Positions 1 to 9,737 of a stretch of DNA of 9,737 nucleotides are shown one piece after another. A model generated the notes under the pieces. The model was given only the letters and a program-made list of their open reading frames with translations, was not told where the DNA came from and searched no databases. A program made the position numbers and the translations under genes. Numbering within the stretch: position 1 is the stretch's first letter; each line of letters begins with the position of its first letter. Source of the stretch: Paraspadella gotoi (Eukaryota; Animalia; Chaetognatha); contig JBJCIZ010000790.1 in the NCBI GenBank assembly GCA_051294375.1, positions 1 through 9,737 of the forward strand, given 5' to 3'.

Positions 1-14
1 CAAGAGAGAATTAA

Positions 15-172
15 TTGAATGCGCATGATAATAATACTGTGTGTGATTTGATTGATGCGATGATAGTCATGTCATTGAATGGGATGATAATCATTTATCT
101 GATATGATGATAATCATTCATTGATGCGGTGATAGTCAATTCATCCTGACCGCGATGGAGATCATTTCAATC
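15..172. repeat. Degenerate minisatellite, ~22-24 bp unit (approx. TTGATGCGATGATAATCATTCA)
   Basis: gatgata(a/g)tcat..cattga recurs about 5-6 times in tandem. Confidence 0.7.
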
Positions 173-212
173 GCTTAATAAAACAAACAACATGCGTGTA
201 TGAAAAAATGAA

Positions 213-243
<31 letters not shown>

Positions 244-1222
244 GAGAGAGAGAAGAGAGAGAGAAGAGGTGAGAGAGCTGTCAGTTTTCCACTCTCGTTT
301 ATATAAAGAATAATCAAAATTTTTCAGAAAAAAAATTTCACGAAAATCTTCGGATGTAAATTTGGGATTTGTGTATTGAGAAATAAAAGCGCGGAAATAA
401 ATGGCGGTTGAGAAGAGAGAGAGAGAGTAGAGAGAGAGTAGAGAAAGAATAGAAGAGAAGCTGGACCGCCCTGCCAGAGCTGCACTCGTTTTTCGACGTA
501 ATCTGAGTAGGGAACGAACTCTTTTTTCCTTTCTAATATTTTTTTGTTACTCTTATCAAAAAAAAATTTTGTCCTCATCTTAAGTTTTTCTTGATGAATT
601 TTAGATTGTTCTTTTTTTTAAGAGAAACCAGAACCGAGGTCAAATTTCATATTTGCATATTTTAACTAATTTATAAATATTTATCCCAGACTCAAGATAT
701 ATTATTATTTAAAAAAGTAATAAAAATGATTATAATATTATACACTAAATATTAAATTTTACTTAATTAAAATTTTTAAAATTGTTTATGAAAATAACAA
801 AATAAAGTACTGTTTTAATTTGGAACAATACGTCTCTCATTCTCTGTAACCTCCTACTTTTAGATATAATTTGCCAACTAGTGGGCGACCGGTCAAAGTT
901 ACAGTAATACAACAAAAACAAAATTTTTTTTTTGTTAGCCAAAGTTATACTATGGCAATTAAAATTAATCCGCGCAATTGCCGGACATATAGTACGCTAC
1001 TATGTAGCAGCAGCAAGCTGATGTACATGTGACATTGCCTGGCATTTTTTTCTAAAAGGAATACATGTGAATTCCCTCGATGTGTAAACTTTGGTATTGT
1101 CATAGAGAAAAAAAAAATAAATGCGATAAATAAAGAGTTTTAGAAGGAAAAAAATAATAGGAATTTTCAAAAAAACGAAACGATCGTACACTTGAGAGAG
1201 AACCAGAGAGAAAGAAGAGAGA

Positions 1223-1258
<36 letters not shown>

Positions 1259-1601
1259 CTGAAAGCAGAGCCGGAACTCGTTTACTCGTTTACTCGTCGC
1301 CTGGTGAAAAAAAAAGTGACTAAAAAATTTTTTTTGTAAAAAAAAAAAAGAGAGAGAGAGAAGATAGAGCCGGAACTGCGTTTAAATGACGGAGGTGAAA
1401 AAAAGGCTGACTAAAAATTATTTTTGTACAAAAAAAGAGATAAGAAAGAGAGAAAGAGAGAGAGAGAACAGATAGGACAGAAAGATAGAGAGAGAGAGAG
1501 AGAGACGGAGAGAGAGGAGAGAGAGAGAGAGAGGCCGGAACTCGTTTACTCGTTACAAGTGAAAACTTTTTTTTTTGTAAAAAAAAAGAGAGAGAGAGAG
1601 C

Positions 1602-1638
<37 letters not shown>

Positions 1639-2062
1639 AAGGAGAGAGAGAGAGAGAGAGAGAAGAGCAGAGAGAAAGTTTTCCCGCCAACGATAACGCA
1701 ATATTAGGTCACTCTTGTTTATATCGGCGGTGATCTCGGTCAAGTTGATTTTTTTTATACATCGTAAACGTTTCGTGCCAATCAAAACAGCGTTATTAGG
1801 TCATGTTCCTCGACATTGTTTTACTCGTTGCCGCACCGCAACGGCCCACGAAATCCAGGTCAATAAAGTTTTATTCTTCAAACATTTTCTAAAAAAATTC
1901 CACGAAAATCTAGAATGTAAACTTTGGGATTTTGTATTGAGAAAGAAAGCGCGGAATAAATGGCGATAATAAAAGTTTTTAGAAGGAAAGAAATAATAAA
2001 GAATTTTCAAAAAACGGTGGTAAATACAAAGTGAAATAATTTTTTTTGTAAAAAAGAGAGAG

Positions 2063-2095
<33 letters not shown>

Positions 2096-2357
2096 GAGAG
2101 AGAGAGAAGAAGAGACGGAGGGAGACGGAGGGAGAGAGAGAGAGAGAGCCTCGAACTCGTTTTTTTTAAAACGATTTCAGAAAAGGCCCCGCGCCTGATC
2201 AAATATATATGTTTTTTAGAAGAAAAAATAATCAGACATTTTTCAAAAAACGAACGATCCACGCAAACAGAATCGCACACCAAAGAGAAAGACAGAGAGA
2301 AACTGAATCGTTTTTTAAACGATTCAGAAAGGGCCAGCGCCTAATAAAATATATACC
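213..2357. repeat. Complex satellite-like region of (GA)n tracts interleaved with repeated modules
   Basis: (GA)n tracts at ~213-277, 410-458, 1194-1254, 1436-1532, 1588-1675 and 2055-2147. Module 'cacgaaaatct..atgtaaa.tttgggatt..gtattgagaaa.aaagcgcggaa.taaatggcg' at ~321-407 and ~1885-1966, partial at ~1083-1180. Module 'gagccggaactcgttta...gtgaaaa...tttttgtaaaaaa' at ~1268, ~1366 and ~1532. The stretch ~540-1080 is AT-rich and not clearly part of the modules. Confidence 0.8.
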
Positions 2358-2916
2358 TATAATTAAAAAAATAAATAAAAGAAAGGCAAAAATGTTAGCA
2401 AGGTTTACAATTGGAAACTTTTCCAATTTTTTTCCAATCGCAGCCTCCTGTAAACAGATTTTAATTTTTATTTGTATTAAAATTAAGATAATAGCTTCTC
2501 ATTAAAAAATCCCTTTGAGTTCCCATTTTATTAGAAATATTAACAAAAAATTTTTTTGAAATTTCATCTTCAATATTTATACTACTGCAATATGTTAAAT
2601 TAGCTTAAAGCTTTCTATATACTAATTTGGATATTATAAATCAGTACTATAATCTCATTGGCATATTGCAGTAAAGTAATAATGAAATGGAAAATTCACA
2701 ACAAAAAAATACTTAAATCCAAATGTAATAAGAAAATATCAAAGGCTATTTCAAGATTGGAGAAGCCATATCTAAATTTTTAACTTACTATGAATGCACA
2801 CTTTGTTAAAACTTTATCATAATTCATAAATAATATTTTATTTTAAAAAAACGGTAAGTCACAGTCAAACCTATAAAAGCGTAAGTAGTTTTTTTATAAT
2901 GGGAAGAAACAGCGCT

Positions 2917-3012
2917 GACGGACGAGAACGACGACGACGCTACGTCAAACAAAGAGCTCACCCGATCAATATCAAGCCTGAACCGGCGAAGCCGGTCATG
3001 GCTTGATAACAA
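2917..3012 (+). mobile_element. Possible terminus of a Helentron/DINE-1-like non-autonomous element (GACG-like microsatellite plus terminal hairpin)
   Basis: gacggacgagaacgacgacgacg (2917-2939), then hairpin TATCAAGCC-TGA-a-CCGGC-gaa-GCCGG-TCA-t-GGCTTGATA (2970-3008). The other end was not located. Confidence 0.4.
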
Positions 3013-3984
3013 GTTTGAGCAATAGGGCGGGTTAAATTTGATCCCTTTTTATCATTAGAAGTTCTGTCATATAAAATTCATTTGTCCATCATATACAGGG
3101 TAGGGATTCAAAACTTAGAAAATCCGTATCACTTCTTCTTTTTTTTACTTTATGACGCATTGTGTGTATTAAAATAAAAAAATTGAATTGAAGATACTTA
3201 ACCAGACCTTGTTGTAACTATTAATGCAATGCGATAAGCACTGTTGCAAAAACGACACCTGCCACAGCACCCAAAAGAATCAGAGCTGCTCTTCATAAAC
3301 TCTTCTGAAAGATTGACCCATAGCTCATAAACGGTTTATCCTAGCCTATCAATATTTTGGTTAAAAGTCATATGGGTGCCCCCCTTTAAAACACCCTACT
3401 TAGCAAAGTTAAAAATAATTTGATATGGATAATATAAAGCCGGAAAATCCTTCGTCAAAAATTAAAATGTTGCTGCATCTGAAATCTTCATTTTTTTCAG
3501 CTGTAAACAATAAAGCCCTTTGTTACAGCCAGAGATGCCAGACGCGATCCGGGAGGCGGACTAGAATACGCGCGGAGGCGCATGTTTTTGAGGTGGCGAA
3601 ACTTGGACTAGAGTCAAAAATTGGGGAGAAGGGAGGCGAATGCGGAGACGCAAAAAACGTTTGCGCGTTCGCCCTCTTGTGCTTTTGTTTTTATAGGCGG
3701 AAAATCAAAAAGGTTTCGCTAAATTAAAACCTTTCTTTTGTTCCAAAAATTGTTCATTCTTTCAAATTTATTTATCAAAAAGAGAATATTCTCCTAGTTC
3801 TGTTTATATTTATTTTAAATAATAAGTTGTACATAAGCATAATTTTTATATCTTTTTTTAATACATCATTCACTCAATTTATTCCTTTTTTTAAACACAA
3901 AGCATAATTAATTAGTTAATTTATTCCTATGAATAATTTAATTAATCATTTAATGGTGGACTAAAATCCACCAACCGTTCATCA

Positions 3985-4059
3985 GCGGCCATTGGTGCCG
4001 GAGGCAAAGTCATTCGCCTCCCAACCCCAAAGGTCCGGGGTTCTAGCCCGGTGGTCGTC
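3985..4059 (+). promoter_or_regulatory. tRNA-derived (Gly-like, CCC at anticodon position) Pol III internal promoter in the LTR; not a functional tRNA
   Basis: Acceptor-like stem GCGGCCA/TGGTCGT, A-box-like TGGTGCCGGAGG (3993-4004), TCGCCTCCCA resembling the tRNA-Gly anticodon arm, T-arm/B-box GGTTCTAGCCC (4039-4049) within a CCGGG/CCCGG stem. D and anticodon stems are degenerate. Confidence 0.75.
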
Positions 4060-4061
4060 TG

Positions 4062-4142
4062 GCAGTTAAGAAGGGACGGGGCCGCTTTTAAACCCGCCTG
4101 TAACATGGTGTTAAAAGGCTGATCCGAAGCTCAGGGACTGGC
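4062..4142 (+). ncRNA. Twister ribozyme-like motif (P5-type), 5' LTR copy
   Basis: Core retained: GA-CGG, TAA, CCC-GC and loop CTGA-TCCGAAGC-TCAG. P1 and P3 carry indel noise. Predicted cut near 4089/4090. Confidence 0.65.
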
Positions 4143-4197
4143 TTATATTGAACGCGTTCCTGTCATTAAGCACTTATCAATAATTACTGCTCTTCAT

Positions 4198-4210
4198 TGG
4201 TGAGCCCGAC
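4198..4210 (+). promoter_or_regulatory. Primer-binding site, tRNA-Trp-like
   Basis: TGGTGAGCCCGAC matches 12/13 nt of the tRNA-Trp PBS TGGTGACCCCGAC and lies 1 nt after the LTR's CA end. Identical in copy 2 (6375-6387, -). Confidence 0.8.
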
Positions 4211-4242
4211 TTCCCGAACACAACAAGCAACAACAACATTTT

Positions 4243-4339
4243 CAGGCGACATGCCTCAACCTGGCGATGCACTTTCTGCCACAACACATCAGGCGACATG
4301 CCTCAACTTGGTGACGAACTTTTCCCACACAACAACAAT
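4243..4339 (+). repeat. Internal ~47-bp tandem duplication with small hairpins
   Basis: CAGGCGACATGCCTCAAC at 4243 and 4290, each followed by tgg.ga.g.acttt...cacaac. AGGC/GCCT stem. Also present in copy 2. Confidence 0.8.
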
Positions 4340-4371
4340 TCACTGAGAGATTGCAACAGACTTCTCCCTAC

Positions 4372-4382
4372 GGGAGGGGGGA
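4372..4382 (+). promoter_or_regulatory. Polypurine tract
   Basis: GGGAGGGGGGA directly abuts the TG of the 3' LTR. Equivalent tract at 6203-6212 (-). Confidence 0.85.
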
Positions 4383-4620
4383 TGTATGGTGGACTAAAAT
4401 CCACAACCGTTCATCAGCGTCTGCGCATTGGTGCCGGAGGCAAGTCACATTCGCCTCCCAACCCAGGTCCGGGTTCTAGCCGGGTGGTCGTCTGGCAGTT
4501 AAGAGGGACGGGGCGCTTAACCCGCCTGTAACATGGTGTTACAGCCTGATCCGAAGCTCAGGGACTGCTTATATTGAACGGTTCTGTCATTAACACTTAT
4601 CAATAATTACTGTCTCTTCA
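4383..4620 (+). repeat. 3' LTR of family A copy 1
   Basis: TG...CA termini; contains tRNA-like head (~4417-4491) and twister-like motif (4495-4568). Confidence 0.9.
4495..4568 (+). ncRNA. Twister ribozyme (P5-type permutation), best-preserved family A copy
   Basis: P5 GCAGTT 4495-4500/GACTGC 4563-4568; P2 GG/CC; conserved GA 4507-4508; T1 CGG 4509-4511/CCG 4551-4553; P1 GGCGCT 4512-4517; U^AA 4518-4520; T2 GC 4524-4525/GC 4556-4557; P3 CTGTAACA/TGTTACAG; P4 CCTGA/TCAGG closing loop U-CCG-AA-GC. This fits the twister U-NNN-AA-GC loop and GA-NNN/UAA pattern. Confidence 0.78.
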
Positions 4621-4691
4621 CATTTATTCATAATTCTATTCTATTTATGTTATTTATTTACTTTATCATTTAAGTTATCAAATAATTTTTT

Positions 4692-5245
4692 TATCTAGCA
4701 TCATATTTTTAAACTTGCACCTTTTTTAATTTGCATTATTATTTTAACTGGCATCATTTTTTCAACTGACATAATTTTTTTAACATGCATTATTTTTTAT
4801 TATATTATTTTACAACTTGAATCATATTTTTAATTTGCATTATTTTTTTAATCTATATCATTTTTTGAATTGTTTTTATCTTGGATCATTTTTTAACTTG
4901 CATCATTTTTTAAACTAGCTTCATTTGGAACTTTTATATTTTTTTTATTTGCATTATTTTTTTAACTTGCAATCATTTTTATTTCATTTCATTTTTTTTA
5001 ATTTGCATTATTTTTGAAAATTGCATCATTTTTTTAACTTCCATTATTTTTTTGATTTATAATATTTTTTGGATTTGCATTATTTTTTAACCTACATCAT
5101 TTTTTCATTTTAAATCATTTTTTATCTCGCATAATTTTTTGAATGCATAATTTTTTAACCTATATCATTTTTCTACTTGCATCATTTTTTTCAAACTGCA
5201 TCATTTTTTAAACTTGCCTTATTTTTTTAACTTGTATTATTTTTC
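4692..5245. repeat. Minisatellite, ~19-21 bp unit (approx. TAACTTGCATCATTTTTT)
   Basis: Roughly 25 degenerate tandem copies of aa(c/t)ttgcat(c/t)attttt. Confidence 0.88.
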
Positions 5246-5929
5246 TTTTTTGTAATTTTTAAAATTTATATTACCTTTTAACTTATATGGTTTTAATTTT
5301 TATATTAAAATTTATATTATCAATTTATTTATACAAACAATTCATAAAATTGATACAAACAATATAACAATTATCCATTTGTTGTTAGTTTGTGAAAAAA
5401 TTTATTTATTAATTAATTAATATATAAAAACTAATTAATTATTGTTTTAACTAATTAATTAATTATCGCTAATGATCGTCATCAGATCTGGCATTGTTAT
5501 TCTGATTGTTGAAATTTAGCGCCTCCAGCATCCCTGGTTACAGCCATACATATTAAACCCAAGGGTATTGCCTATTCATAAATGTCAAGAAATGGAATCT
5601 CAGTACTCTATAGTAGACTGCAGCAATGGTTTTTAACACAGTAGCAAAAATACAAAGAAATATTTTTTTATTTCATGCTGCAGTATATTGCATTATGCTA
5701 TTAACTTGATATTCTATACATAGAGTCCCAACTACATTAGTTATTGTTTTCCAAGCTTACAGAGATCGCACTCAGACACACTACAGTGTGAACTTTAAAA
5801 AAAAAATTTACAGCATCTTAAAATATCTTTTAAAAATCAAGGATAGAAATAACTTCTCAAACTGCTGCAGCTTAATGGCCATAGGGTAATAAAGATAACA
5901 TGTCCCAGTAAATATTTCTACATTGAGTT

Positions 5930-6694
5930 TGAAGAGACAGTAATTATTGTTATGTGTTAGTGACGAACCGTCAATATAAAGCAGTCCCTCGCAGCTTTCG
6001 GATAACAGGGCTCTGCTAACACACAACTGTTCACAGAAGGCGGTATTTGAAGCGCCAGTAGACGAGAGAGTACCTCAGGCCTCTAACTGCCAGACGACCG
6101 ACCGGTCGTAAGAACCCGGACCCTTTGGTTGGGAGGCGAATGACTTGCCTCCGGCACAATGGCCGCTGATGAACGGTTGGTTATTTTAGTCGCACCATAC
6201 CATCCCCCCTCCACGTAGGAAGGATGTCTGTTGCGTTCTTCAGTGAATTGTTGTTGTTGTGGACAAGTTCGTCAACCAAGTTGAGGCATGTCGCCTGATG
6301 TGTTGTGGGCAGAAAGTGGCATCGCCAGTGAGGCATGTTCGCTGAAAGTGTTGTTGTTGCTGTTGTGTTCGGAAGTCGGGCTCACCAATGAAGAGACCAG
6401 ACAATTTGATTGTTATGTTGTGCAGTAAGTGATGACAGACAACCTTTTCAATATTCACCCATCGCGTACCGTCCCTGAGGCAGTTCGCGAGGTTCATGGC
6501 TGTAACACACATGTGTACAGGCTGGGTTAATGCGCCGCGCGTCCGCCTCTTAACGTGCCCCAGACACGCACCGGGCTAGCGAACCCGGACCTTTGGTCCT
6601 TGGTTGGGAGGGCGTAATGACTTGCCGTTCCGGCACCAAATGCCGCTAGAACTACCGGTGAGTGGTGGCATTTTTATGTGTCCCAGACCATTTA
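5930..6694 (-). mobile_element. Family A TRIM copy 2 (reverse orientation, noisier)
   Basis: On the minus strand: 5' LTR ~6694-6389, PBS 6387-6375, internal duplicated hairpins, PPT 6212-6203, 3' LTR 6202-5930 ending GTCTCTTCA. tRNA-like heads at ~6564-6646 and 6094-6166; twister-like regions at 6471-6558 and 5981-6090. No clear TSD. Confidence 0.87.
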
Positions 6695-8191
6695 AATATT
6701 CTTCATTTGCTCTCTCTTTAAATTTTCTCCTTTATTAAGCATAATAAAGGGTTGCTTCCAGACAATATATTCATTGGCTTCTTGGGCATGCCTAACAAAT
6801 AGAGAGCTGGATTAGTTGTCTCGCTGTATTAACACGCACTTCTTATATAGCCAATGCACGGTTTTCACCGAACCTCAGAATAACCTATTTATGTCCTATT
6901 CTTAATAAACTTCATTAATTATAATAACACTACCTGACCTGAGGAATAGCTTAAGCCCATATTTTAGGTAGTCGGTTTTATGCTGGCAAAATCCGGCGCG
7001 GAGCATCATCCACAATGTTCAAGCCAACGTTTCATACTTCTTGGTACTCACATCTATCCGTGAATATTAGAGGATCAAGGCTGACGTCATGATTGTCGTT
7101 TAGACACGACGTAGCTGAAAAGAATATAGACGAAACACTCTTACAAGACGAAAAGACATCAGTGCAATATTTGCTCTGATCATGTAAGCTTAGATGGAAT
7201 CAAATAATAAAGTACGCAGAAGTAAATATAGATTCATCTTTAGTCTATGCGGAGCCGCCGATTCAGCACCGCGCATGTACACAGAGCATGAAGGTCTATT
7301 AAGGGTTCGTCACGTGTTTCTAATTTCCTAAGTTTGATTACTACCGCTGTACTTATCCAACTATTGTAAACTATCACTCATTTTTATAACTAGTGAAGCC
7401 ACAGCTATAACATGTGAAGTATCTTAAATATTTAATGCATAGGCAAATTGGAAAAAAAGAAAATTTGTAAAAAAATTTTTTATTCTTTGAGAACGGATTC
7501 AGATAGCCCATTTGAAAAAGTATAGATGCTGGTGTTCTTCATATCTCGGATGAACTAAGTGGTACATAATTGAAAAACCCCTTAAAAATTTATCATCATC
7601 ATCATCAATACCGAGTAATTTTTATAGTTTTGTCTAATTTAACCCCATAAAAACATAAAAATTGAATTCCTTGTAAATATATTCTTTATTATTTTTTTTA
7701 AAGCTCTACCCGAATCCGCTTTTTAAAAAATTCTGAATTTGAAATATAAGATTTTCATGATTTATAGTAATATCGATAAACTTAAAATGCTTCTATGTCA
7801 TAACATACATAAAATCTTAATTTTTTTTTTTATCCCACCAGGAATGCTTTTATCCGTTATTTATATGACGAACTCTTAGTTTTGCCTTTGTTCCGCCTAC
7901 AATAATTAACAGAAGGTAACAGCTAATCAGATGATAAATGACGAAATAAATTCTTTTCCAAAATTCAATTGTGATCAAATAACACGATTGACCATACCAA
8001 ACCAATGGCTTAGCGCATATACATGTAAATCGTGCTTGCAAGGGATTAAACTGGAACTGTTACTATAGAACAAACCCAAATATCTCGATTTCTTACTATT
8101 ATGTAGATTAGTTAAAGCTTTCTTATTTATTTATAAACCATTGCTAAAATACTTTACAAATAATCGCATCAAATTTAATAAATAGAGATAT

Positions 8192-8408
8192 TGAAGAGCA
8201 GCAATATATGTCGGAATATGCTGTTAATGACAGAACCGAAATATAAGGGAGGCCGCAGTCTCCTACCTCTGGAGGCTTTGGCATCAAGGACACTGTACAT
8301 CCACCATGCTTAAGACGAGGCGGAGATTGAGAGCGCCCCGTCCCCCTTCTTACCTGCTAGGCGACCAACCAGGGGTGTAGGGAAACCCGGGACCTTTGGT
8401 TGGGAAGG
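8192..8408 (-). mobile_element. 5'-truncated family A LTR (copy 3)
   Basis: Minus strand reads cccaaccaaaggtcccgggtt...ggtcgcct...aagaagggggacggggcgc...gactgc...cggttctgtcattaac...ctgctcttca, colinear with the LTR from the anticodon arm to the CA end. Confidence 0.8.
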
Positions 8409-8433
8409 ATTCTTAGTACCAAACCGATTAGCA

Positions 8434-8506
8434 TAATCTTGTCCTTGACTAAGGTGCGAGTGAGTTGCGGTTAAGGCCTCCATGCAACACATCTCAGACA
8501 AGAATA
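8434..8506 (-). ncRNA. Degenerate twister-like motif, family B downstream copy
   Basis: Direct repeat of 8827-8889. Retains TGG-AGGCCT-TAA and P5 (TCTTGTC/GACAAGA); L4 and P4 are corrupted. Confidence 0.5.
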
Positions 8507-8826
8507 ATACACAGCTATAAACAAGGCTCTATGGCAATTAACACTTATTTCGACTCAAAAATCTCTCTCTACCGTCCTTGTTTACTTCAACTCCCATGTC
8601 AAACCTGGCCCTTCTATCCCTATCAATAAGTAGTATATGATATATTCATTATGCTAAAGCGATGTCTTTATCAATATTGAGAGTATGAAAGACACACGCC
8701 TTAAGTATCTAGAATGTCGCACGGAGAATACTATATTGTACTTCGCACTAGCATCAATATACAAAAAGCTGAGTTTTATGAAATTGGTACAAATAAAAAT
8801 ATTATCTATTCAATTAATAAATAAGC

Positions 8827-8889
8827 TATCTTGTCCCTGACTTTGGACAGGCTTTGGTGTTTTAAGGCCTCCATCACACTTAAAAGATA
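8827..8889 (-). ncRNA. Twister ribozyme (P5-type), family B
   Basis: Minus strand: TATCTT-tt-aa-GTGT-GA-TGG-AGGCCT-TAA-AAC-AC-CAAAG-CCTG-T-CCA-AA-GT-CAGG-gac-AAGATA. P5 TATCTT/AAGATA, T1 TGG/CCA, T2 AC/GT, P4 CCTG/CAGG, minimal P3, imperfect P2. Predicted cut between 8864 and 8863. Confidence 0.72.
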
Positions 8890-8972
8890 ATAACATTAAT
8901 AATAATATTCATTAATTAATCCATTAATTTACTAATTAAAACATTTATGAGTAAGCATAAATAATAAATTTT

Positions 8973-9673
8973 AAAGTCAACTTGACTTTGATTTTTTTAA
9001 TACAAACTCATTTCCACTCCTCTATTCCATCAAAACTTTATGCTGCTCAATCACACACTTTCCTACCTACACACAAAATTTCATCTCAATCTATCCATTC
9101 AATTTTAAATAATTTGAGTAATTATGAGTTGAAATTAGTAAAAAGATTCAAGTAATTGTGACTTATATTTTTTTCCATTTAAACTAATTTTCACTCGCAC
9201 GATTCCATCGAAACTTTATATCCAGGTTCGTCACACACTTTTCCACCAACACACAAAATTTCATCTCAATCTATCCATCCAATTATTATTAATTAGTGTA
9301 ATTATGGGTTAAAATTAATAAAAAGATTCAAGTAATTGTGACTTATATTTTTTTCTATTTAAACTCATTTCCACTCGCACGATTCCATCGAAACTTTATA
9401 TCCAGCTCAATCACACACTTTCCTACCCAAGTACCCATACACAAAATTTTATTCCAATGCAACCATCCAATCTAGAGTACTTGGAGTTTTTGCTAAGGGA
9501 GAACGGACTGACAGAAAGACAGACGGACGGACGGACATCATTTTTTTTTTAATAATTTATCATAATTTGATGTTCTGACATGATTTAAGTTAATGCCCGA
9601 CAAGATTGAGGGGGCGGACCGACAAAGTGAATTATAGAGTCGGAATCTGCTGATAAGCAGATCCCACTAAAAA
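8973..9673 (+). mobile_element. Helentron-associated non-autonomous element (HINE/DINE-1-like) with internal satellite
   Basis: Palindrome AAAGTCAA-c-TTGACTTT (8973-8989), ~180-bp tandem repeats, GACA/GACG microsatellite (9503-9537), subterminal AAGTGAATTATA (9625-9636), terminal hairpin with core ATCTGCT-gata-AGCAGAT (within 9638-9668), then an A5 run. The left boundary is uncertain. Confidence 0.7.
9004..9471. repeat. Tandem repeat, ~180-bp unit, about 2.6 copies
   Basis: Units start at 9004, 9181 and 9361 (aaactcatttccactc...tcacacactttcc...acacaaaatttcatctcaatctatcca...gtgacttatatttt). Confidence 0.93.
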
Positions 9674-9737
9674 TCCAAGTTTATCCAAATGATAATAAAT
9701 AATTTACCTGAAGATCTCTTGGGTGGAAGATAATGGC

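Follow-up and report, generated by a model that had tools for sequence, protein, structure and literature searches.

The window analysed here is the whole of a 9,737-nucleotide (nt) stretch of the chaetognath Paraspadella gotoi (GenBank assembly GCA_051294375.1, contig JBJCIZ010000790.1, positions 1 to 9,737, forward strand). Its DNA is AT-rich, full of repeats and eukaryotic-looking, and with its many insertion errors it resembles an unpolished long read. Positions 3951..4620 of the plus strand (670 bp) hold a full, non-coding miniature long terminal repeat (LTR) retrotransposon of the type named terminal-repeat retrotransposon in miniature (TRIM), with no long open reading frame inside, which is referred to below as element A. 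Each of its LTRs carries a tRNA-like head followed by a twister-like ribozyme fold. As read from sequence, the novelty lies in a Helenus-type TRIM that combines a retrozyme-like design with a non-canonical predicted twister; Helenus elements and retrozymes are themselves already known.

Element A and Its Family

The 5' LTR (3951..4196) contains read-error indels and ends with CA at 4196, while the 3' LTR (4385..4620, 236 bp, or from 4383 if the start is taken to be TG) ends with CA at 4620. Aligned with each other, the two LTRs agree at 89.2% over 250 columns, with differences that are mainly indels of the kind an unpolished long read typically carries. Between them lie a tRNA-Trp-like primer binding site (PBS; 4198..4215), starting with TGG and showing no listed substitution in short-read contigs, an internal region with an exact 19-nt direct repeat (4242..4307; arms 4242-4260 and 4289-4307), and a polypurine tract (PPT) of 11 purines (4372..4382). 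In the PBS, 12 of the first 13 letters equal the end of the honeybee tRNA-Trp printed in the Helenus supplement (PMC10886601). The letters CATT flank the element on the left (3947..3950) and on the right (4621..4624) and are probably its target-site duplication (TSD). A 4-bp duplication with an LTR starting TATGG is the probable reading by sequence because of an ATAT flank consensus on both sides, with a length of 5 or 6 bp also possible in so noisy a read.

Two more copies lie on the minus strand of the window: element B, a second full copy (approximately 5930..6690) whose target duplication is not recognisable, and copy C, a 5'-truncated LTR (8192..8405), both very noisy. That element B could be a hairpin artefact of the read was considered and rejected, since the stretch separating A from B does not form an inverted repeat.

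Contigs from seven short-read runs, out of 13 on record, were compared with the window. Over positions 3850-4700, organism A contributed 15,458, 8,039, 2,496 and 1,005 contigs from its four runs. Loose ends of these contigs gather on the left at 3953 (186, 146 and 103 in runs X1, X3 and X5) and on the right at 4620 (159, 153, 76 and 41 in X1, X3, X5 and X9), and the AT-rich flanks beyond them differ; the left-flank consensus finishes with ATAT+T in two of the three runs listed, and the right-flank consensus begins with ATAT in all four. Element A is a member of a dispersed, many-copy family that ends at the 3951-4620 boundaries and sits within diverse flanks. The order LTR, PBS, internal region, PPT, LTR, which a first-pass annotation had read from the letters alone, is thereby borne out by the element, by its two further window copies and by the family boundaries.

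The summed contig depth of run X1, which is not a copy number, reaches about 4 million in the LTR, whereas long contigs that carry flanks stand at about 200, and this suggests thousands of copies in which LTRs outnumber internal parts. Family variants in the 9,590 contigs of this run are mainly C>T and G>A, peaking at CpG. Contigs of X9, a run only guessed to be RNA, enter varied flanks as those of the DNA runs do, and the run is therefore uninformative on expression. Runs with small shares gave three contigs (X10), one (X11) and none (X12), from which no inference on habitat or relatives is drawn. Two low-depth contigs of organism B in X10 pass 4620 into sequence that is PBS-like but different, hinting at the same LTR with another internal region.

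The Twister-like Fold of the LTRs

A P5-permuted twister-like fold occupies positions 4494..4569 of the 3' LTR, on the plus strand. Its parts follow in the order P5, 3' strand of P2, G4507-A4508, T1, a six-base linker and U4518^A4519-A4520, and then the 5' strand of P2, T2, P3, P4 with its loop L4, and P5. Helix P5 has seven pairs (4494-4500/4563-4569), P2 two pairs plus a C.A (4504-06/4521-23), P3 eight pairs (4526-33/4537-44) and P4 five (4545-49/4558-62), with pseudoknots T1 of three pairs (4509-11/4551-53) and T2 of two (4524-25/4556-57). Checked pair by pair, all pairs of P3, P4, P5, T1 and T2 form, and the conserved L1 and L4 nucleotides and both pseudoknots of the type P5 twister are present. 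The order and register of all parts agree with the published twister layout (PMC8501958, Table 1), including the predicted cut between U4518 and A4519, the place that the first-pass annotation had proposed. A pairing descriptor of the fold matched once in the window; among shuffled sequences it matched none of 5000 made from the LTR and 7 of 100 made from the whole window.

The corresponding fold of the 5' LTR (4061..4142, plus strand, predicted cut near 4089-4091) is damaged by read errors, and a short-read loose end at 4071 shows a core that matches the one in the 3' LTR. At the family level, no indel reaches at least 1% over 4470-4625 among the X1 contigs, and no change is listed at G4507, A4508, U4518-A4520, U4550, A4554, A4555, G4556, C4557 or C4525; the fold therefore belongs to the family majority and is not a read artefact. 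A loss of the T1 and T2 pairing from the consensus, which would have spoken against the ribozyme, is not seen, as the short-read majority retains both. A common change in P5, G4494A (48% in X1), turns a G.U into an A-U pair and keeps the helix.

The fold is very probably a twister by descent. Twister-sister, pistol and hammerhead readings were tried and rejected, having no Rfam support, and its conserved bases do not suit any of the three. The predicted fold would probably also cleave itself.

Departures from the Canonical Twister

Several observations weigh against an active ribozyme and are best taken together. The first-pass annotation had called the twister core complete in both LTRs; the twister identity, T1, T2 and P3 to P5 stand, in the 3' LTR directly and in the damaged 5' LTR by way of the loose end at 4071, but completeness does not. 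The 5' strand of P2 has three bases instead of four and forms two pairs with a C.A at the top; the pair closing L4 is A4549-U4558 in place of G-C; and no intramolecular P1 hairpin is possible, a six-base linker standing where it would be. The G-C pair that closes L4 has been termed essentially invariant, and a P2 of altered length has been suggested to perturb the active site, while P1 is dispensable in vitro (PMC5408937), so that cleavage as a monomer is still possible. The search with Rfam twister models that had been proposed for this DNA leaves the LTR fold undetected even at E values up to 10, below the gathering score of RF02684. A covariance model of 56 phage P5 twisters with a three-nt P2 (model R1) matches it only partially, at E 0.93, the training set having been chosen for a fixed P4 and carrying long P1 hairpins. 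The constancy of the catalytic G and C positions, with four informative sites, is not significant, as 11 of 34 non-CpG G/C sites of the core reach 1% in a hand count. Additionally, G4553A occurs at 13% against 7% for its T1 partner change C4509T (X1, unphased), and T1 is therefore broken in some copies.

The short P2 can be judged against phage twisters. In an unbiased sample of 115 distinct phage twisters, parsed from 137 sites at 130 viral loci, the three-nt P2 spacing is found in 7 of 31 P5-type members against 1 of 84 of the P1 and P3 types. P5-type members account for 67 of 69 three-nt cases in a pooled set from an enriching scan, and their paired P2 sequences vary; of 20 loci with this spacing, Rfam gathers 18. 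Given this bias and this recognition, the three-nt spacing is a natural feature of P5 twisters. A phage P5 subtype with a three-pair P2 is common, as at the viral loci L036, L144, L157, L163 and L174 (alignment A3). The remaining peculiarities find less company there and add to the points against activity: the top P2 pair is mismatched in just 2 of 67 phage cases, and the sole C.A case, L203, falls below the Rfam cut-off, being one of the two loci that Rfam missed. Phage P5 linkers measure 14-42 nt in 96 of 96 cases, against 6 nt in the LTR fold. The covariation set took 56 members, with linkers up to 26 nt, from these 67 three-nt P5 twisters; its covariation is partly circular because T1 and two P2 pairs had served as filters in choosing them. 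A result of 0 of 200 shuffles, from a pattern built on two motifs of the window, is likewise circular and is not used as evidence.

A search for relatives took 31 metagenome, 120 plus 38 viral and 12 prokaryote pattern matches (201 loci, the 120 being taken from about 1,100), and none of these 201 combines full pairing with a 6-nt linker. Other searches for relatives gave no match in metagenomes and none in viral contigs.

These departures, and the failure of covariance models to see the fold, are what would be expected if the twister were a passenger, inactive or of no relevance, that was picked up along with an LTR-forming sequence such as a Penelope-like terminal repeat, in an ordinary Helenus TRIM that moves by way of an uncut transcript. 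Such a transcript would already be terminally redundant, so that a ribozyme is not logically needed for transposition; most Helenus LTRs examined in the supplement of PMC10886601 spread without one, and G4553A at 13% fits the same picture. A mere passenger does not explain why all helices and both pseudoknots are intact in the majority, why subfamily variants preserve pairing in P5 and in the acceptor stem of the neighbouring head, or why a different class of ribozyme apparently, by eye, holds the same place in other Helenus elements. The short P2, being natural among P5 twisters, loses its force as a sign of decay. We regard the passenger explanation as quite unlikely, and a functional twister remains the preferred reading.

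The tRNA-like Head

Just upstream of each fold stands a tRNA-like head, a putative RNA polymerase III (Pol III) promoter, at 3985..4059 in the 5' LTR (Gly-CCC-like) and at 4417..4492 in the 3' LTR, both on the plus strand. At its normal threshold ARAGORN reports no tRNA gene in the window; at the 80% threshold, where alone the heads appear, it gives eight matches, three of which are LTR heads (3985-4059, 4417-4492 and c6093-6165, the last labelled Gly-CCC). The twister-like fold begins 2-3 nt 3' of the head, and the earlier claim of a tRNA-like head shortly 5' of the ribozyme fold is supported at that relaxed threshold and with that gap, the head being of Helenus type. Box A and box B are both degenerate in comparison with published Helenus motifs (PMC10886601). 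Within the head the anticodon stem is broken but the acceptor and T stems still pair intact, and the family variants T4488C (22% in X1) and T4491C (64%) convert G.U pairs of the acceptor stem into G-C, keeping the pairing.

No T-run lies 3' of the head. Inside the element, two T4 runs present in the window at 4239 and 4320 are lost from the family, T4239C making up 99% and T4323C 97% of X1 depth. This loss may fit Pol III read-through and is weak evidence for it, few such runs being expected by chance.

The acceptor and T stems, which the head at 4417-4492 retains, are the parts recognised by tRNA-processing nucleases. Because they are preserved, RNase P or RNase Z could also cut beside the ribozyme fold.

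The Palindromic Hexamer and the Question of Dimers

In place of P1 the fold carries a self-complementary hexamer (4512..4517, plus strand), which sits in the exact P1 register and pairs with itself at six of six positions (-8.3 kcal/mol as a duplex), so that an intermolecular 6-bp P1 is possible. The first-pass annotation had overlooked this palindrome, and with it an apparent hammerhead-bearing Helenus counterpart that is treated further below.

A second twister-like fold of the window, motif D (8836..8878, minus strand), belongs to a different repeat and scores 24.8 bits with Rfam Twister-P5, below the cut-off of 37.6. It retains the G-C pair closing L4 and has a different self-complementary hexamer of its own in the same register; between the two families T1, T2 and the palindrome covary with pairing kept. 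A different palindrome in the same register of a second twister-like family points to dimeric cleavage. A palindromic helix III likewise marks metazoan hammerheads that act as dimers (PMC4209133). Some caution attaches to motif D, as it pairs only one of the first two P2 positions, its fold z-score is +0.24, and its sequence is unpolished. A noisier second copy lies about 390 nt off (about 8430-8490, minus strand), and no tRNA head, PBS or PPT was seen around the two copies. Placed directly upstream of the LTR fragment C, they are possibly a non-LTR retrozyme or a Penelope-like terminal repeat.

Taken alone, one LTR has a minimum-energy fold in which a hairpin traps T1 and displays the palindrome in an 8-nt loop. 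This competing hairpin is more stable than the twister skeleton by 7.7 kcal/mol (-29.0 against -21.3, with pseudoknots uncounted), another point against cleavage. We infer from the modelled pairing that the two LTRs of one transcript may complete each other's P1; that cleavage requires the dimer is possible, though we lean somewhat against a strict requirement.

The same loop could be read as a dimerisation or packaging signal, in which the hairpin makes a kissing contact with another RNA through its GCGC loop, the likeness to a twister being incidental. The minimum-energy fold with its exposed palindrome is what such a signal would look like, yet T1, T2, the L4 bases and the U^AA register would be left without explanation, and motif D lacks that hairpin. 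We give this explanation very little credence.

Proposed Mechanism

What is directly established are the architecture, the high copy number with diverse flanks and the anatomy of the fold; the later steps we infer from these. Our narrowly favoured reading is that element A represents a many-copy, non-coding Helenus-type TRIM whose LTR twisters cut, likely as a pair, releasing a unit-length RNA that circularises and is copied by a helper LTR retrotransposon. Pol III would initiate at the head of the 5' LTR and read through the unit, which lacks T4 runs in the short-read majority. A lone LTR would adopt the competing hairpin, with the palindrome in its loop. Once the second LTR is made, the hexamers would come together in a 6-bp P1 that serves both folds, and the two twisters would cut at U^AA in the manner of metazoan minimal hammerheads, while solo LTRs would remain mostly uncut. 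The monomer of about 428 nt (4091-4518), with a 5'-OH and a cyclic phosphate, would be closed by a host ligase, and a tRNA-Trp-primed reverse transcriptase of Gypsy type and an integrase would copy and insert it with 4-bp duplications. That the circle serves as the template for reverse transcription seems to us just short of an even chance. The predicted monomer, folded from the error-laden copy, is not unusually structured (z +0.85; 78 of 100 shuffles fold as well), which speaks against this scheme.

A slow or conditional twister could instead take over the role of a Pol III terminator and form the 3' end, giving a linear RNA that is cut in the 3' LTR alone and keeps about 100 nt of redundancy from head to cut, as in Cassandra. 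It would account for the missing T-run behind the head, a run that most Helenus LTRs examined in PMC10886601 do have, for a competing hairpin that could slow cleavage, and for a monomer without the strong fold of plant retrozymes. The same fold is present in both LTRs, however, and a shared palindromic P1 would favour simultaneous cutting; no mechanism is at hand that would spare the 5' copy. This alternative is distinctly improbable beside paired cutting and circularisation.

The most far-reaching version of paired cutting, tentative and on balance unlikely, is that the twister is a natural domain-swapped dimer, cutting only with both LTRs on one transcript and thereby checking for full-length copies before circularisation. 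Pol III-headed LTR retrozymes would then be an unrecognised non-plant class with an interchangeable ribozyme slot, filled by a hammerhead in Synergus Helenus-2 and by a twister here.

Relation to Known Systems

By its sequence, element A falls under the published definition of Helenus (TRIMp3) and, by its design, would work like an LTR retrozyme. Helenus elements are likewise shorter than 1 kb and non-coding, with a PBS, a PPT and two LTRs holding tRNA-like sequence; the definition includes a target duplication of 4 or 5 bp, animal families have a 4-bp TSD, as is probable here, and Pol III transcription is unproven for Helenus (Kojima 2024, PMC10886601). Helenus-2_SyJa shares the Trp-type PBS, and some wasp families also start with TA. 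The probable 4-bp TSD and the Trp-like PBS may hint at an invertebrate host. Element A differs in that the roughly 130 nt after the head hold the twister fold and no T-run follows the head.

PMC10886601 names no ribozyme in any Helenus, the word occurring only in the title of one reference. A motif search of its supplement gave no sequence match to element A, and neither this search nor reading found a twister loop in a fitting context in Helenus LTRs, the fungal parts being unread and line breaks being able to hide motifs; the idea that Helenus LTRs generally hold twisters is thus unsupported by those sources. A 12-nt match to Ajax LTRs was treated as chance. By eye, a type III hammerhead that is not annotated appears to lie a short way behind the tRNA head in Helenus-2_SyJa-LTR and Helenus-2_SyUm-LTR, from wasp elements with a Trp PBS (PMC10886601, Data S1); its core has three stems, and its loops 1 and 2 complement each other. 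If this reading by eye holds, these two would count as LTR retrozymes of animals.

Plant LTR retrozymes (Cervera 2016, PMC4918200) are similarly non-coding, with a PBS, a PPT, a 4-bp TSD, a small ribozyme motif in each LTR and common solo LTRs. They differ in having a type III hammerhead, a tRNA-Met PBS, LTRs of 300-400 bp and no tRNA head, where element A has a twister, a Trp-like PBS and a 236-bp LTR; their circles are proven by experiment and their fold is stable, whereas element A is known from DNA alone. LTR retrozymes are characterised by a hammerhead, and Rfam matches none in the LTRs of element A. According to a 2026 preprint, LTR retrozymes are mainly plant elements and hammerhead-bearing.

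The type-P5 twister (RF02684) agrees with the LTR fold in permutation, in the bases of L1 and L4 and in both pseudoknots, and many of its phage members have the three-nt P2 as well; it has a P1 hairpin, in contrast to the 6-nt palindrome, the A-U closing pair and the sub-threshold Rfam score of element A. The dimeric minimal hammerheads of Penelope-like elements and non-LTR retrozymes (PMC4209133) resemble it in a cut-site helix shrunk to a palindrome that is completed by a tandem partner, yet they belong to the hammerhead class, in a non-LTR setting without PBS or PPT. Twisters in retroelements have been described at the 5' ends of RTE elements (PMC8501958, PMC7761336). Among them, the T-variant twisters of Perere-3 RTE (PMC8501958) have in common with the LTR fold a eukaryotic retroelement as host, a weak P1 and a similar P2-T2-P3 start, but they are of P1-type permutation, and their non-LTR element carries just one, at its 5' end.

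Neither a twister in an LTR element nor a palindrome-dimer twister was found in the openly searchable literature, with Repbase, Dfam and most subscription journals lying outside the search; the first-pass remark that no described element joins a tRNA head to a twister agrees with this. If the reading is true, an LTR element that has both a twister and a Pol III promoter within it would unite TRIMp3 and retrozymes, which the literature consulted treats apart, and the twister would gain a dimer-dependent mode known from hammerheads. Counts of such ribozymes among eukaryotic repeats would be too low, since the fold escapes Rfam. Element A resembles a natural version of the twister-flanked cassettes used for circular-RNA expression.

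Other Repeats in the Window

Immediately to the right of element A, at positions 4685-5244, an AT-rich unit of 18 bp is repeated in tandem, in about 31 copies. A repeat rich in GA microsatellite spans 200-2350, with blocks that recur at spacings of 839 and 1561 nt. A 180-bp tandem repeat in 2.5 copies (8983-9427) is followed by an ACGG-type microsatellite near 9505-9540, which resembles Helitron-related short elements of invertebrates.

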